A DNA stretch of 13,558 nt from a virus. Lineage: Duplodnaviria > Heunggongvirae > Uroviricota > Caudoviricetes. A model generated the notes under the pieces. It saw only the letters and a list, made by a program, of their open reading frames with translations, was not told the DNA's origin and ran no database searches. A program made the translations under genes and the position numbers. This document shows positions 1,358-12,460 of the stretch, one piece after another. Within the stretch, counting starts at the first letter, position 1; each line of letters begins with the position of its first letter. Where the stretch lies: the IMG/VR virus record IMGVR_UViG_2529292874_000020, one strand, 5' to 3'.

Positions 1358-1549
1358 GAGCGTCGTTCGCTAATCATGGTCGCCGCCACTATAGCTGGTG
1401 GGCAACGACCGGGGTTGAACATTAAAAATCAGCCTGACTCGGGATCAGTTTTTGCCAGATAGCTGAAACGTATTTTGCCTGGTAACGGGCGTCATCAAGT
1501 GCATTATGGCGCTCACCTTCGAATGGAATAGCCGTTCTGGCATCGAAGT

Positions 1550-2548
1550 CTATGGCTTTCCCCAGCTCAACGATTGTGCGTACATCGCGATCGTTGTAGT
1601 AACGCCACGGGCAGGGGTCCCCTGCCGTTCGTATGAACGGCGCAAAATCGTGTTGTCGAAGTTGGCTCCATTTCCCCAGACATGAACAAAAAATTCACCG
1701 GAGTTTTCGTCGATAAATTCCCGCAATTGTAACAGTGCATCATCTAACGGGATTTCATCGGTCATAATGGCAGATTGCGCTTCGCGTGATTGCTTAAGCC
1801 ACCATTTCATGGTGTCCCGATCAATGACTCCGCCAGCAGTATCCAGATCGATAGTCTTACTAAATTCCGGTCCCATATCTCCGGTTTGCGGATCGAAAAA
1901 TATTGCACCTATTGAGATGATCGGGGCATCAGGATTTTTTCCCATGGTTTCAAGGTCGATCATTAGATGAATCCCCGCTCTGCTGGTGGATGTGAGATTA
2001 TGATGACCGTTCGCCTTAATTAAGGGATCTGACGCCTCGCCAGTTTCACTATCGCTGGCATGATGCTGATTGCCGCCAGTGTTCTCCTTGTGCTGATGTG
2101 CAGTACCTTCCATTTCCTCCGGATCATTTTCCTGAACTTCAGGCTGATTCTCTCCATCGAATATTTCCTGGTATGTTGCGTCGCCCATCACCGCGCCACA
2201 ATCAGGGCAGTTGCCGCCGCCGGTCTGACCGCAGGCGGTGCAGACTTTTTCCGGTTCCTGTTGCGCTACTGGTTCAGGTTGTTTCGTTTCTGGCTCGTTT
2301 TGTAACGCATTTGGACTGTTTTGTTCCGTTTCTTGCTGGTTCTGGTTCACAGAATCGCGGGTTTCAATCCCCTTCACCCATTTCGGATCATTCGGGTCGC
2401 TAATCCCTTCAACAAATTCACCACGTGATGCAGCAAGCAATTTATCGGCGTCAGGCTGGCTGATATTGGCTGCCTGCATAATTTTGTTTACTTCGTCAGC
2501 GGTAACTTTTACCGGCTCTGGTTGTTCTGAATCTTCAGCGGTATCCAC
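1550..2548 (-). CDS. Exonuclease fragment (RecE-like linker plus DEDDh Exo I/II motifs; C-terminus lost to frameshift) as an ORF caller would report it
   Basis: 332-aa ORF from the supplied track, starting on GTG. Contains MIDLETMG and NGANFDNTIL. The expected H-x4-D motif is absent from this frame but present in the adjacent frame downstream. Confidence 0.6.
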   Translation of the reverse strand: MDTAEDSEQPEPVKVTADEVNKIMQAANISQPDADKLLAASRGEFVEGISDPNDPKWVKGIETRDSVNQNQQETEQNSPNALQNEPETKQPEPVAQQEPEKVCTACGQTGGGNCPDCGAVMGDATYQEIFDGENQPEVQENDPEEMEGTAHQHKENTGGNQHHASDSETGEASDPLIKANGHHNLTSTSRAGIHLMIDLETMGKNPDAPIISIGAIFFDPQTGDMGPEFSKTIDLDTAGGVIDRDTMKWWLKQSREAQSAIMTDEIPLDDALLQLREFIDENSGEFFVHVWGNGANFDNTILRRSYERQGTPARGVTTTIAMYAQSLSWGKP

Positions 2549-3297
2549 ATTTTGCGGTAAGCCCGTGTATGTGCCATTTTTTCGGGCAAAATATTCTTCT
2601 TTTGTGATTTCAGTACCGCCGGCAGCCAGCGCCTTGTCCAGACCAGAAAGTTTGTTTGCCCTGCCGTATTTTTCGCCTCCTTATCGGTGAAGAGGAAGTA
2701 GAACGGCCCCTCACGCTCTACAGATGGTTCGACTTCCACTTTGCATTCGGTTTTTTCGTTGTCCGGAATTGCCGTTTCCACTGCATCAGTTTCTGGTACT
2801 GGCGACGAGAGAGTGTCAGTTGCGCTCTGATTTGTTCCTTCATCTTCAAACACGCCCTTTGTAGTCAGGTATTCAGTAATGTATTTGTTCAGTGCCACAG
2901 GGTCTTTGTGAATATCGATCGGACGTTCGCGAACAAGGCCAAAAATAGTCTGACGGTCATAGCCAAGTGCTTCGGGCTGTTTGCGCATTGATGCTGAGAT
3001 ACGCTTCCAGTCTTCGCGATCCTTGTCGATAACCTCATTTGTCGCCCAGCGATGGATGGTACCGTCAATGTTTCCTGCATCCACATCACCGGGCCAGAGG
3101 GCGCAGGCCAGTTCGTCATCCAGTGTTTTCCATGTCTGCTTATATTCGCGACGAATGACTGCAGTGACAGGGGGGGTTTTTTCAGCAGCGTTTTCAGTGT
3201 TCTGTTGGTTGACTCTGGCGCGGGCGAGATCAACAACAGACGTGTATTTTCCGGTTTCCTTGCGTTCACCTTCGCGACGTTTTTTCCAGATGCGCAT
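2509..3297 (-). CDS. Fragment of the same disrupted RecE-like gene (middle segment)
   Basis: 262-aa ORF, protein-like over its first ~200 aa. Its last ~55 aa (Trp/Arg-rich) look out of frame, while the exonuclease frame is open and protein-like from 2680 downward. The other frame over 2889-3297 is compositionally junk. Confidence 0.5.
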   Translation of the reverse strand: MRIWKKRREGERKETGKYTSVVDLARARVNQQNTENAAEKTPPVTAVIRREYKQTWKTLDDELACALWPGDVDAGNIDGTIHRWATNEVIDKDREDWKRISASMRKQPEALGYDRQTIFGLVRERPIDIHKDPVALNKYITEYLTTKGVFEDEGTNQSATDTLSSPVPETDAVETAIPDNEKTECKVEVEPSVEREGPFYFLFTDKEAKNTAGQTNFLVWTRRWLPAVLKSQKKNILPEKMAHTRAYRKMWIPLKIQNNQSR

Positions 3298-3548
3298 TTC
3301 TGCCTGAATTTCAGGCCATTTGCACCAGGCTTACATTTATGCTTAACCCACCCGATGGCATGCAGCTTAAGCTCCGGATACATGGCGTTAACTTCTGGCA
3401 TTTTCATCAACGCTTCAACGATATGTCCGTCGAATGTTGCCATGTCTTCCTGCAACAATTCCTGTGCGCTAATCACCATATCAACGGTGATGTTTTCACA
3501 TGTGTCGAACTTAACCATGACAGCGTTCTGTACTTCAGGGGCAGCTTG

Positions 3549-3869
3549 TCAAAAGTTGACGTTCATCGGATCGGATTCAGTCTCGACCGGGACAAAGGAA
3601 GCAGACTCCTCATCCCAGCGGTTTTCCTGCATATATTCAGCATCCCAGGAATCGAGGGCAGGGCGGGGTATACCGGGTTTATCCTCGCAAACAAGAAATT
3701 TATAAGCGCAGTCCTGAGCAGCCGGATAATGCTCCAGGAATTGCCAGTGAAATTTTGCGCGGGCGCGACGTTCATCACCGGCTTCAATGGCAGTGGCTAC
3801 AGCGACTGCACCTTCTTCCTTTATTGCCTGTTCGTCCGGAATGGCGGCGCAAATAAAGACTTTACTCAT
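3549..3869 (-). CDS. Hypothetical protein; likely N-terminal segment of the RecE-like gene (ydfE-like position)
   Basis: 106-aa ORF in the same frame as the ORF starting at 3518, separated from it only by a TGA at 3549-3551. No convincing Shine-Dalgarno precedes the ATG at 3518. Confidence 0.45.
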   Translation of the reverse strand: MSKVFICAAIPDEQAIKEEGAVAVATAIEAGDERRARAKFHWQFLEHYPAAQDCAYKFLVCEDKPGIPRPALDSWDAEYMQENRWDEESASFVPVETESDPMNVNF

Positions 3870-3961
3870 TTTGTTTTACCTCATTACAGATTTAAGGGTG
3901 AACAAATCCCTGCCATTGCTGGCATATAAGAATGAAATCGGATGTTTATTACGGAACTGTT

Positions 3962-4508: not shown

Positions 4509-4566
4509 AAAAAGGGCGGCAGAGCAGTCACGGAGTAAAACTGATACCGCCAAACGTCACCAGAAA
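4509..4566 (-). ncRNA. dicF: DicF small RNA (ftsZ-targeting sRNA of the dicB operon)
   Basis: The reverse complement of 4509-4566 reads TTTCTGGTGACGTTTGGCGGTATCAGTTTTACTCCGTGACTGCTCTGCCGCCCTTTTT, which matches the DicF sequence as I recall it, including the GC-rich 3' stem and U-run. Orientation and position (between the ydfC-like gene and dicB) fit. Confidence 0.7.
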
Positions 4567-5758: not shown

Positions 5759-5851
5759 GTCGGCTCCTTGTGGTTAGCGTTGCCTGCTTTTTAACCACGT
5801 CAGGCGAGGTGGTATCCTCTGAGGGGGCTGTTACTCGAGAGGAAATTGGTT

Positions 5852-6052
5852 ATGAATACAATCAAGTTTTCTTGCCCAGAATGTGGTGGCGAAGTCTTTG
5901 ACACATCCTTTAAGCCGCAGGGCTCTGACAGTTTCGCGGGAGCCATCTGCAAAAATTGTGGTCACCTTGTAACTGAAGATGAGTCCTCGCAGTTCGATGA
6001 CGAAATCGTTGACAATATCTTCGGTGCACTCACCAGAGACTTTCTGAAGTAA
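5852..6052 (+). CDS. Small zinc-ribbon protein (CPxCG ... CxNCG)
   Basis: 66-aa ORF from the ATG at 5852 (track start at 5846 is TTG), with GAGAGGA upstream. Two Cys pairs, CPECGG and CKNCGH, 17 residues apart. Codon usage looks E. coli-like, unlike the overlapping antisense ORF. Confidence 0.5.
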   Translation: MNTIKFSCPECGGEVFDTSFKPQGSDSFAGAICKNCGHLVTEDESSQFDDEIVDNIFGALTRDFLK

Positions 6053-6098
6053 AGGCGCATACCGCTTAGTTACCGCTCTGATAACTCTTACCTGTCCT

Positions 6099-6133
6099 GC
6101 AATGGCGCTGATGTCAATATAAAGCGCCATTGC
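6099..6133 (+). terminator. Strong hairpin (11-bp perfect stem, 13-nt loop) downstream of the zinc-ribbon gene; possible terminator or RNA processing structure
   Basis: GCAATGGCGCT (6099-6109) and AGCGCCATTGC (6123-6133) are perfect inverted repeats. It lies 47 nt past the zinc-ribbon stop, but the following tract is only moderately T-rich. Confidence 0.3.
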
Positions 6134-6268
6134 TGCTTCTTTGCCGATCCCGGGATGCCTTCCATTCTGATGTTTGACTTCGCCCACTGAGAAACCCTCT
6201 GCTTCCCCTTAACGCCGGGTAGCGGAACTGTTTGCTGAGAACACCGTGCGGTGTCTTGATGAGTAGAA

Positions 6269-6320
6269 TTTAGAATAGCCTAAGAGTTATGGTCAAGCTT
6301 TTTGTGTAGAAAAACCTAAG
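6269..6320. promoter_or_regulatory. Two operator-like dyads resembling the dicA-dicC operators (candidate oL/Pb-type control region for the dicB operon)
   Basis: TTTAG-aatagc-CTAAG at 6269-6284 and the imperfect TGTAG-aaaaac-CTAAG at 6305-6320 share the xTTAG-N6-CTAAx pattern of the three sites at 6803-6869. Confidence 0.3.
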
Positions 6321-6394
6321 CTTCTTGATGTAAAAAACACAAGTATTTGAAAGTTTGTGCTTTTTATTACAGAGAGTTGCGAAAAAAAGGGGGG

Positions 6395-6802
6395 TTATTT
6401 ATTTGCGCTTCTTTTGCGAGCTTTGAGTAGTTCTTCAAAAAGTTTGTTGAAATTCTCAACTCGAGCACGCATCTCTGACAACAGAGCCTTTTGCTCTGAC
6501 TCAGGCAGTGCGTCGAACAGTTGAAGCAACTCTTTTTGATCTTCTGTCAGATTGACTGGCTGATTATCTGGGATCGGTTCGCCTGGTTGCTTATCTTCAT
6601 CTCCAAAAAGAAGCCAAGTCGGCGAGCACTGAAGCGCCTGGCTCAGTGCGAATAATCTCTTCCCCGCTGGCTGTGTTTCATCTCTTTCCCATTGAGAAAT
6701 TGTTACGTGAGCCACTTTGACCAGCTTACCTAATGCGGCCTGAGACAGTTTTAATTTTTTTCGCCTGTATAAGAGGCGAGCACCGAAGGTTTCGTTTTTC
6801 AT
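6395..6802 (-). CDS. dicA: DicA-like HTH (XRE-family) prophage repressor
   Basis: 135-aa ORF with an N-terminal helix-turn-helix (LSQAALGKLVKVAHVTISQWERDET) and the DicA-like C-terminus SPTWLLFGDEDKQP...MRARVENFNKLFEELLKARKR. Same length as DicA and divergent from a DicC/Cro-like gene. Confidence 0.85.
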   Translation of the reverse strand: MKNETFGARLLYRRKKLKLSQAALGKLVKVAHVTISQWERDETQPAGKRLFALSQALQCSPTWLLFGDEDKQPGEPIPDNQPVNLTEDQKELLQLFDALPESEQKALLSEMRARVENFNKLFEELLKARKRSANK

Positions 6803-6869
6803 ATTAGGTAATTCTAATTTTTCTTGACTTAGGTTTCTCTACGATCTAGTTTCCTTAGGAAAATCTAAG
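6803..6869. promoter_or_regulatory. Tripartite operator array in the divergent dicA-dicC promoter region (oR-like)
   Basis: Three 16-bp dyads with the same architecture: ATTAG-gtaatt-CTAAT (6803-6818), CTTAG-gtttct-CTACG (6828-6843), CTTAG-gaaaat-CTAAG (6854-6869). Centre-to-centre spacing is 25-26 bp. A TTGACT -35-like hexamer at 6824-6829 overlaps the middle site. Confidence 0.55.
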
Positions 6870-6878
6870 GGGTTCGAT

Positions 6879-7106
6879 ATGTTGAAAATTGATGCTATAG
6901 CGTTTTTTGGCAGCAAAACAAAGCTTGCCAATGTCGCAGGAGTTAGGCTGGCAAGCGTTGCTGCATGGGGGGAACTGGTTCCTGAAGGTCGCGCGATGCG
7001 CCTGCAAGAGGCATCCGGCGGGGAACTTCAGTACGACCCCAAAGTTTATGACGAATATCGTAAGGCAAAGCGGGCGGGGCGGTTGAACAATGAAAATCAC
7101 CACTGA
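6879..7106 (+). CDS. dicC: DicC-like Cro-type regulator
   Basis: 75-aa ORF divergent from dicA, with AAGGGG 6 nt before the ATG. MLKIDAIAFFGSKTKLA...GRAMRLQEASGGELQYDPKVY matches my recollection of DicC. Confidence 0.8.
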   Translation: MLKIDAIAFFGSKTKLANVAGVRLASVAAWGELVPEGRAMRLQEASGGELQYDPKVYDEYRKAKRAGRLNNENHH

Positions 7107-7641
7107 ACAGGTTTGTGAGGCTCTGGATACCTGGGTATGCCGACCAGGAATGACACAGGAGCAGGCGACGATATTAATCACGGAAGCATTCTGGGCTCTG
7201 AAAGAACGCCCGAACATCGATGTTCAACGCGTCACGTTTAATGATGGCGAGGTTGATCAACGGGCGCTGGGCGTTAACCGGGTGAAGATATTCGAACGCT
7301 GGAAAGCTATCGACACCAGAGATAAGCGTGACAAATTCACGGCGCTGATTCCGGCAATTATGGAGGCTATCCGGATCAGCGATTTCAGATTGTATTGTGA
7401 AATTACTGACGGAAAAAGCATTACGTACATGATCGCCGGGTTAAACAAAGAATATGGCGATGTGGTGGAGTCCGGGCTGCTTTTTGCGGATCCAGTTGTT
7501 GTGGAACGTGAGACTGACGAGCTTATAGAAAAAGCTATTGCTTTCAAGCACGCGTATCGTCAGCAATACCAATATTACTTTGCAGATAAACAAATGTCTG
7601 CCAGGGGGGCGTATGAGTATCGATGCACTACGATGGGCTAA
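7090..7641 (+). CDS. YdaT-like protein (prophage CII-like/YdaT family, function uncertain)
   Basis: 183-aa ORF whose start overlaps the dicC stop (ATGA-type coupling) and whose end overlaps the replication gene start. Position after the cro-like gene mirrors ydaS-ydaT in Rac. Family assignment is by recollection only. Confidence 0.55.
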   Translation: MKITTEQVCEALDTWVCRPGMTQEQATILITEAFWALKERPNIDVQRVTFNDGEVDQRALGVNRVKIFERWKAIDTRDKRDKFTALIPAIMEAIRISDFRLYCEITDGKSITYMIAGLNKEYGDVVESGLLFADPVVVERETDELIEKAIAFKHAYRQQYQYYFADKQMSARGAYEYRCTTMG

Positions 7642-11634: not shown

Positions 11635-11826
11635 GCGAAAACGGTTTGCTGTAACGGCAGAGTTAAGTAGGATTGCTGCGGGTGCTTGAGGCTATCTGCC
11701 TCGGGCATGAACACCAACGGCAGATAGATAAAAGCCCCACCCGACTATAAATCGAAGTGAGGCCCCTATATGCTCGTCACATATAGATTGCCTCTTACGG
11801 ACCGAAAGGTCAAGGAGAAGCAGGCT

Positions 11827-11982
11827 ATGAAGCAGCAAAAGGCGATGTTAATCGCCCTGATCGTCATCTGTTTAATCGTCATAGTGACGGCACTGGTAAC
11901 GAGGAAAGACCTCTGCGAGGTACGAATCCGAACCGGCCAGACGGAGGTCGCTGTCTTCACAGCTTACGAACCTGAGGAGTAA
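11827..11982 (+). CDS. hokD: Hok-family type I toxin, HokD/RelF-like
   Basis: 51-aa ORF MKQQKAMLIALIVICLIVIVTALVTRKDLCEVRIRTGQTEVAVFTAYEPEE with a single transmembrane segment and the conserved Hok C-terminus. AAGGAG RBS 8 nt upstream. The track ORF 11770-11982 is the same frame with a 19-codon upstream extension. Confidence 0.85.
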   Translation: MKQQKAMLIALIVICLIVIVTALVTRKDLCEVRIRTGQTEVAVFTAYEPEE

Positions 11983-12202: not shown

Positions 12203-12460
12203 ATGAGAATCGAAGAATTACGTGAAATTTTTAGTGAAGATGGCCTCTATACTGTGCGCGTTGAGAAGGGCGCTATTGTCAGCCACTGCCGTATTAAATG
12301 TTTACAGTCTCAACAAAGGAAGAGTGGAGCTGCGTTAATTCATTTTGTGGATGGGCTTGTGACGGATGGTTTTATTTTGCGTGCAAATGAATTTGTCACA
12401 TCGTTGCCGTCTCTGAAAGAAGCTGGGATTAAGGCTGGTTTTTCTGCTTTTGAAGATTAG
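12203..12460 (+). CDS. Hypothetical 85-aa protein (Rem-like by position next to hokD)
   Basis: ATG at 12203 (track starts on TTG at 12200), with GGAAGGA upstream. It occupies the position rem holds downstream of hokD in Qin. No sequence-level confirmation. Confidence 0.5.
   Translation: MRIEELREIFSEDGLYTVRVEKGAIVSHCRIKCLQSQQRKSGAALIHFVDGLVTDGFILRANEFVTSLPSLKEAGIKAGFSAFED

Follow-up and report, generated by a model that had tools for sequence, protein, structure and literature searches.

Five short inverted repeats on either side of a dicA-like repressor gene very probably serve as operators in an immunity switch that is P22-like and of the DicA/DicC type, a reading that we base on comparison of the sequence with phage P22, with E. 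coli K-12's Qin prophage, and with related immunity regions. The repeats share the core TTAG-N6-CTAA, in two of the five with one mismatch. Three of them (sites 1 to 3) lie between the divergent dicA-like and dicC-like genes, in an intergenic region of 76 bp (6803-6878), and are spaced 25 and 26 bp apart from start to start; the other two lie downstream of dicA, at a leftward promoter whose operon holds ydfC, DicF, and dicB. The initial annotation of this DNA had reported all five sites, giving the half-site sequences of sites 1 to 3 within 6803-6869 and the positions of the other two, as well as the 25-26 bp spacing within a 76-bp divergent region, and our own reading of the sequence returned each of these as described. 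It had also taken the sites to form a lambda-like oR/oL pair. The paired reading, with one cluster at dicA-dicC (OR) and another downstream of dicA (OL), is supported by our analysis, but the layout is P22-like and only two OL-type sites are present.

The window (the whole 13,558-nucleotide stretch that was analyzed) is the early part of a lambdoid EHEC prophage inserted at ompW and carries, in order, int, xis, exo, a dicB-like gene, DicF (4514-4565, minus strand), ydfC, a 118-aa open reading frame, the dicA-like and dicC-like genes, and a YdaT-family gene, followed by replication genes, paa, hok/sok, rem, and others. Over 911 bp around the sites, the identity is 100% to chromosomes of E. coli O157:H7, O103, and other EHEC and 99.9% to the “PPompW” prophages of STEC, which are lambdoid and inserted at ompW; at a coverage of at least 80%, this 911-bp immunity region occurs in 751 of 5426 complete E. 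coli genomes. In EHEC, the prophage type carries effector genes, and in some records it adjoins a Stx2a phage. The control exerted by the prophage extends to dicB and DicF, which block division of the host cell, and knowledge of its operators bears on the design of reporter and derepression experiments, on the prediction of cross-immunity between the numerous DicA-type prophages of a single genome, and on the interpretation of DicA and DicC ChIP data in pathogens. It makes no conceptual addition to the model known from P22, lambda, and Qin. The OR-OL architecture is not new, as the idea dates from 1988, and what we describe here is a CTTAG...CTAAG-flavored version of the P22/Qin layout.

Proteins of the switch and the evidence from K-12

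The repressor is 63% identical to DicA of K-12 Qin over 131 residues, and its residues 2-69 match the N-terminal domain of P22 c2 (E = 1e-21). The Cro-like protein encoded divergently from it is 83% identical to K-12 DicC, scores above the curated cut-off for the Pfam family P22_Cro, and matches the P22 Cro structure 1rzs. Pfam gives HTH_3 as the only domain of the 135-aa repressor, and no peptidase or autocleavage (S24-like) domain was found in it. For DicA, the literature reports that the Ala-Gly cleavage bond is missing (PMC10448788). Because the repressor has no autocleavage domain, induction probably takes the antirepressor route through a Rem-like protein, which would free the repressor from its operators, and not the RecA route. 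Rem of K-12, which was recognized from its likeness to the antirepressor GfoA, lifts the repression of dicBp by DicA, and deletion of dicA raises dicBp expression 22-fold (PMC10448788).

The K-12 switch has also been described by Ragunathan and Vanderpool 2023 (PMC10448788), where Bejar et al. 1988 is cited for three operators at dicA-dicC and for operators at dicBp. Yun et al. 2012 found that DicA binds the operator Oc (TTGTTAGTCATAACTAACAA, TTGTTAG-N6-CTAACAA) in vivo, that a single A-to-C change in the CTAACA of Oc abolishes this binding, and that dicC is repressed and dicA activated by DicA at Oc (PMC3441716). The motif proposed in the initial annotation is not in conflict with these published data, as Oc contains the TTAG-N6-CTAA core. 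Site 3 of the window (CCTTAG-N6-CTAAGG) shares the core of Oc, including the A whose change to C kills binding in K-12. For DicC, ChIP-seq in K-12 gave the strongest signal at the dicA locus, where the authors infer one site on each side of dicA, and yielded the palindromic motif TT(A/C/T)G...C(G/A/T)AA (PMC11430063). Reg-Seq confirmed that dicC has a site of the DicA class, giving no sequence for it, and failed for the dicA promoter (PMC7567609).

Dyads and promoters on the two sides of dicA

The features of the switch are collected in Table 1.

Table 1. Positions of the dyad sites, promoters, and genes of the immunity switch in the window
Feature	Coordinates	Strand	Sequence or elements	Remarks
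Site 1	6803-6818		ATTAGgtaattCTAAT	ATTAG-N6-CTAAT; counterpart of Qin Oa and P22 OR3
Site 2	6828-6843		CTTAGgtttctCTACG	CTTAG-N6-CTACG; imperfect dyad; counterpart of Qin Om and P22 OR2
Site 3	6854-6869		CTTAGgaaaatCTAAG	CTTAG-N6-CTAAG; perfect dyad with A-tract center; counterpart of Qin Oc and P22 OR1
OL1-like site	6269-6284		TTTAGaatagcCTAAG	TTTAG-N6-CTAAG
OL2-like site	6305-6320		TGTAGaaaaacCTAAG	TGTAG-N6-CTAAG; one core mismatch
Rightward PR-like promoter for dicC	6824-6852	+	-35 TTGACT (6824-6829), 17-bp spacer, -10 TAGTTT (6847-6852)	
Predicted PRM-like dicA promoter	6811-6839	-	-10 TAGAAT (6816-6811), 17-bp spacer, -35 GAGAAA (6839-6834)	weak -35
Leftward PL-like promoter	6267-6296	-	-35 TTGACC (6296-6291), 18-bp spacer, -10 TAAATT (6272-6267)	dicBp homologue; from consensus scan
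Hairpin with flanking A and T runs	6331-6366	-		separates the stop codon of dicA from the OL-type sites
dicA-like repressor gene	6395-6802	-		135 aa; HTH_3 domain (Pfam), peptidase domain absent
dicC-like Cro gene	6879-7106	+		75 aa; divergent from dicA
rem homologue	12203-12460	+		candidate antirepressor; 73% identical to K-12 Rem

Sites 1, 2, and 3 align base for base with the annotated C2-binding operators OR3 (AGTTAAGTCATCTTAAAT), OR2 (ACTAAAGATTCCTTTAGT), and OR1 (ATTTAAGTGTTCTTTAAT) of P22, respectively. In the alignment, P22 OL1 and OL2 are the counterparts of the two distal sites, one to each side of a common GGTCAAG that is invariant in an alignment of the leftward promoters with P22 and Qin, and the OL1-like site aligns in addition with the dyad proximal to dicBp in Qin, GATTAG-N6-CTAACA.

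In the OR region, site 1 is contiguous with the start codon of dicA and shares bases with the predicted dicA -10, site 2 fills the rightward promoter's spacer and extends over the predicted dicA -35, and site 3 begins 2 bp past the rightward -10 and spans the point where the dicC transcript is expected to start. The -35 of the rightward promoter is invariant across an alignment of P22, Qin, and mEp460, and TAnnnT is retained in relatives at the position of its -10; this -10 is weak (3/6), and a consensus promoter scan does not report it. The dicA promoter was assigned by homology only, from an alignment with the annotated PRM and the 5' end of the RM transcript of P22, where the PRM -10 lies inside OR3 and the transcript begins 4 nt before the c2 ATG. 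By this alignment, transcription of dicA would begin about 3 nt ahead of the ATG, near 6805, and the mRNA would be nearly leaderless; the expected start for dicC is near 6859 and that for the leftward transcript, from an alignment with the annotated PL transcript start of P22, near 6260. Reading the sequence before the dicA ATG, we found no Shine-Dalgarno sequence.

The initial annotation had expected a repressor-controlled early-left promoter at the distal sites, and the consensus scan does place a leftward promoter between and over the two. The OL1-like site falls within the spacer and -10 of this promoter and the OL2-like site lies 9 bp upstream of its -35; the two flank the -35. The hairpin that separates them from dicA has a folding energy of -12.5 kcal/mol (z = -3.1 against shuffles) and is probably the dicA terminator, insulating the leftward promoter. 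It occupies the position that in P22 corresponds to OL3. A scan of 6100-7000 with up to two mismatches gave no third OL-type site, the extra matches lying only inside dicA (6490 and 6741).

Clustering, conservation, and co-variation with the repressor

The statistical case is made by clustering and conservation, as the raw motif count alone is not significant. With at most one mismatch allowed, TTAG-N6-CTAA has five matches in the window, exactly these sites, for a motif that was defined post hoc, after inspection of the sequence; about four would be expected by chance, and the total is unremarkable. The two imperfect sites depart from the core in the right half of site 2 (CTAC) and in the left half of 6305-6320 (GTAG). 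None of 2000 dinucleotide-preserving shuffles of the sequence gave three matches in 60 bp or five in 600 bp. When only the AT-rich intergenic regions were shuffled (GC 33% and 41%), the probability of at least three matches in the 76-bp region was P < 5e-5, and that of at least two in the 207 bp downstream of dicA was P = 0.006. The whole-prophage motif scan that the initial annotation had suggested was run on the complete record of 44,350 bp, where the only three exact matches (0.6 expected) all fall in the immunity region; the remaining one-mismatch matches come from the AT-rich right-end effector region and have the appearance of chance matches. The same window was searched for the published YdaT box, TTGATT-N6-AATCAA, which at two mismatches has 2 matches (1.1 expected), neither of them near the switch.

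Conservation was assessed in 97 loci with relatives of DicA, which comprise 36 distinct intergenic sequences. The initial annotation had made its proposal depend on conservation of the sites among homologous immunity regions, and this held, the half-site cores of close relatives being unchanged. In the 18 distinct OR variants with a DicA at least 95% identical, variation is seen in 14 of the 76 columns but in 0 of the 24 core columns (P = 0.003), and at OL it affects 1 of 16 core columns versus 79 of 215 columns overall (P = 0.005); both P values take columns as independent and sequences as unrelated, and they are indicative only. The conservation of sites 1 and 2 is in addition confounded, because both overlap promoter elements (the dicA -10 for the one, the rightward -35 and spacer for the other).

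Dyads are found at equivalent positions in Pantoea, Enterobacter, a Klebsiella phage, Citrobacter, Buttiauxella, and Yersinia, and among those relatives the spacing from site 1 to site 3 is constant at 49-51 bp. The site 1 dyad is retained in 13 of 17 representative loci (15 of 17 if one core mismatch is allowed), and in most relatives its symmetry survives changes of the spacer. Site 2 is conserved where DicA is at least 71% identical, and only its left half is kept in the group of Qin, E. albertii, and Citrobacter. The OL2 position holds a perfect TGTTAG-N6-CTAACA in E. albertii and Citrobacter and GATGAG-AAAA-CTCAAG in mEp460.

With immunity type, the half-sites shift symmetrically, and they do so at OR and OL together. 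They read CTTAG...CTAAG in the window and GTTAG...CTAAC, as TGTTAG-N6-CTAACA, in Qin, E. albertii, and Citrobacter; in the mEp460 type, TTGAG-AAAA-CTCAA occurs at site 3 of OR and at both OL sites, and TTGAG also in the left half of site 2. The recognition helix of the repressor is HVTISQWE or HVSVSQWE in the types with TTAG/CTAA and GSSISLWE in mEp460, with TTGAG/CTCAA, and the correspondence applies at OR and OL alike. Such co-variation of half-site and helix is to be expected from repressor-operator co-evolution, and it is the strongest in-silico argument that the dyads are operators.

This pattern bears directly on two readings in which the dyads have nothing to do with the repressor. That the palindromes are chance products of AT-rich intergenic DNA or by-products of promoter hexamers, with no specific binding, is scarcely credible to us: five matches against about four expected, the AT-rich setting, and the post hoc motif would all agree with it, but no shuffle clusters the matches so tightly, the local shuffles give the low probabilities reported above, the core columns are invariant amid varying neighbors and change symmetrically and in concert in heteroimmune relatives, and the same core was found independently by experiment in Oc of K-12. 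It is also very unlikely that the sites are bound by the YdaT-family CII-like protein (7090-7641) or by a nucleoid protein of the host, for example H-NS, instead of by repressor and Cro. The gene for the former does come after dicC, the corresponding intergenic region of the Rac prophage contains three operators bound by YdaT (PMC11879457), and H-NS with CnuK9E antagonizes DicA binding in K-12 (PMC3441716). However, the YdaT box is a different half-site, and the dyads both co-vary with the recognition helix of the repressor and match the motifs obtained experimentally for DicA and DicC in K-12.

A narrower version of the operator reading deserves more weight, although we consider it rather unlikely: only site 3, and perhaps the OL sites, would be true DicA operators, with site 1 mainly a target of DicC and site 2 a leftover half-site. 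DicA of K-12 bound Oc and neither Om nor Oa when these were cloned and tested singly (PMC3441716), although an assay of isolated sites is blind to cooperative binding, which is the way weak middle operators work in P22 and lambda. Site 2 has a degenerate right half that is missing in the clade of Qin, E. albertii, and Citrobacter, but its left half becomes TTGAG in the mEp460 type and there matches the other operators. As for site 1, DicC represses dicA 48- to 84-fold and binds the region by ChIP-seq (PMC11430063), and conservation of the site could stem from the overlapping -10 and start codon; against this, it is a perfect dyad with the core of site 3 and persists as a dyad in most relatives despite changes in the spacer. 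All three sites, moreover, align with P22 operators annotated as C2-binding. The equivalents of sites 1 and 2 may be weak sites, sites that depend on cooperativity, or mainly DicC sites.

Under the reading that we prefer, in which all five dyads are operators, a DicA-like dimer would use its P22-c2-like helix-turn-helix to recognize the outer bases of an operator of about 18 bp, with the core TTAG-N6-CTAA and a flanking position that is mostly C...G in this phage. Repressor on sites 3 and 2 (on site 2 cooperatively) would silence dicC along with the replication and lytic genes that follow it, and by analogy with P22 and Qin the same occupancy would also stimulate the weak dicA promoter. Site 1 is the likely target at which dicA is shut off, by high levels of repressor or by the Cro-like DicC. 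On the other side of dicA, the leftward promoter would be blocked from the OL1-like site, partnered by the OL2-like site, so that the ydfC/DicF/dicB operon would be repressed, and derepression would come through the Rem-like antirepressor rather than RecA. We infer here the pairing of proteins with sites, the order of affinities, the cooperativity, the activation of dicA, and the transcription starts.

Relation to P22, Qin, lambda, and Gifsy-type switches

The side findings of most interest are a probable specificity switch at the flanking operator position and a conserved leader. The flanking position corresponds to the first contacted base in P22 operators (PMC4267663), and because the flank differs there, this prophage and Qin are probably heteroimmune. 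The leader follows closely on the leftward promoter, has a length of about 65 nt, and is very conserved and unannotated. Its consensus fold consists only of a 4-bp hairpin with weak covariation, and as a single sequence it folds no more stably than shuffles. Searches of Rfam, at the gathering threshold and at relaxed E-values, returned only DicF and sok, with no match in the switch region or the leader, and comparison of the leader with P22 nutL and with HK022 put-like relatives in phage records gave neither a resemblance nor an annotation. One possibility is that the leader is a new antitermination RNA that replaces N/nut of P22 at that position. A short, uncleavable repressor might likewise work via an OR-OL loop, with five operators about 0.5 kb apart. 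The joint reading, with a separate DicA-family immunity specificity set by the C...G flank and, besides this, an OR-OL loop and an antitermination leader, is offered tentatively, and we would sooner doubt than adopt it; if the flank does set such a specificity, the prophage would be heteroimmune to Qin-type elements despite the common TTAG core.

The operators of P22 are 18-bp dyads in which the outer bases from position 2 are contacted by the repressor and the center is read indirectly (PMC4267663). Here too, the outer operator bases are conserved and the center is variable and A/T-rich. The resemblance to immC of P22 extends to the promoters, with a -35 TTGACT overlapping the middle operator, a -35 TTGACC between OL1 and OL2, and a repressor ATG that abuts OR3. 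Operator centers are 25 and 23 bp apart in P22 versus 25 and 26 bp here, and TTAG is at 4-7 bp from the dyad center, whereas P22 has TTAAG at 3-7 bp. The P22 c2 repressor has 216 aa, in contrast to 135 aa and no C-terminal autocleavage domain here, and P22, like lambda, has three OL sites to our two. We found no homologue of gene 24 (N) in this DNA and no recognizable nutL boxA/boxB in the leader.

Qin has the same order of genes, with ydfC/DicF/dicB on one side, then dicA, and dicC divergent from it, as well as dyads with the TTAG-N6-CTAA core at homologous positions at both promoters, a homologue of the Rem protein at the identity given in Table 1, and a strongly conserved leader past the leftward promoter. 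The flanks of the core are usually CTTAG...CTAAG here, as opposed to GTTAG...CTAAC in Qin (Oc being TGTTAG-N6-CTAACA), and the middle site, with 7 of 8 core bases, is a better dyad than Qin Om. Three dicBp operators are stated for Qin, versus two in our DNA; the first gene of the leftward operon is the 118-aa open reading frame here and ydfA in Qin; and replication and structural genes are retained here, whereas Qin is cryptic.

With lambda, whose switch logic is summarized in PMC10448788, this region shares the divergence of the repressor gene from cro, a trio of operators over PR/PRM at intervals of about 2.3-2.5 helical turns, a second group of operators at PL, and a repressor mRNA that is leaderless or almost so (predicted here). 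The operators themselves have no sequence similarity to those of lambda, and the repressor family and the operator length are different. The distance between OL and OR is about 0.5 kb rather than the 2.4 kb of lambda, and we would expect induction by an antirepressor in place of RecA-stimulated cleavage. In this last respect, the switch resembles the Gifsy-type repressors GfoR/GfhR of Salmonella, which are short, uncleaved, and inactivated by a small antirepressor. The switch thus functions like those of P22 and lambda but, with the autocleavage domain absent, is not a classical member of that group as far as induction is concerned.

A conserved leader downstream of the PL-like promoter

The leader that directly follows the PL-like promoter, the leftward homologue of dicBp, is ~65 nt long (CATCAAGACACCGCACGGTGTTCTCAGCAAACAGTTCCGCTACCCGGCGTTAAGGGGAA) and is nearly unchanged in sequence comparisons across heteroimmune relatives (Qin, the cryptic prophage of K-12; mEp460; and E. 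albertii), despite the differing operators adjacent to it. Less closely related loci keep a CGCC-N5-GGCG hairpin of the leader, predicted by alifold. When the sequences of these loci are read by eye, the first hairpin, which is absent from the alifold prediction, appears to carry compensatory substitutions in its stem. We found no match to the leader in an Rfam search, no annotation of it in phage records, and no likeness to nutL of P22, the element at the same position in that phage. The leader may act in antitermination or processing.

A mosaic junction lies immediately past the leader, at ~6187-6200. In Qin, and in loci with a 100% identical DicA (e.g., the locus L014), the leader is followed by ydfA (ATGGATACTATCGATC...), whereas in this window it is followed by a 118-aa ORF for which a Pfam search returned no match.

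Features around the switch and in the flanking genes

Between the OL-type sites and the dicA stop codon, we observe a hairpin, probably a bidirectional terminator, that is bordered by a run of A and, on its opposite flank, a run of T, and a homopolymer tract whose length differs between otherwise near-identical relatives. Beyond dicC, a YdaT-family gene overlaps the end of the Cro-like gene. YdaT is a CII analogue in the Rac prophage, with a published box of TTGATT-N6-AATCAA (PMC11879457); scanning the window for this box revealed none near the YdaT-family gene. On the minus strand, the exonuclease gene appears to be split among several overlapping ORFs (1550-2548, 2509-3297, and 2889-3518); in a near-identical phage record it is annotated as a pseudogene, with a frameshift through a 4-bp deletion.

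Features located in the window
Feature	Position	Strand	Remark
Exonuclease gene	~1400-3900	minus	
DicF sRNA	4514-4565	minus	Rfam, 76.7 bits
118-aa ORF	5831-6187		beyond mosaic junction
Leader	6190-6262	minus	
Hairpin	6331-6366		z = -3.1
C6T7 tract	6376-6394		directly past dicA stop codon
YdaT-family gene	7090-7641	plus	
sok antitoxin RNA (hok/gef module)	11680-11829	plus	Rfam, 103.9 bits
rem homologue (antirepressor Rem)	12203-12460	plus	73% identical to K-12 Rem

Comparison with mEp460, P22, and Qin

In the mEp460 immunity type (locus L096, which is mEp460 itself, and the loci L100-L179), the dicA-adjacent site of the dicA-dicC intergenic region is ATTTAGATATCTTAAT. This site is closer to the operator type of P22 than to mEp460's own TTGAG-AAAA-CTCAA sites, so the mEp460-type switch has mixed operator types. 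The rem homologue of the window is flanked by hok/sok and ydfU, and rem holds the same relative position in Qin.
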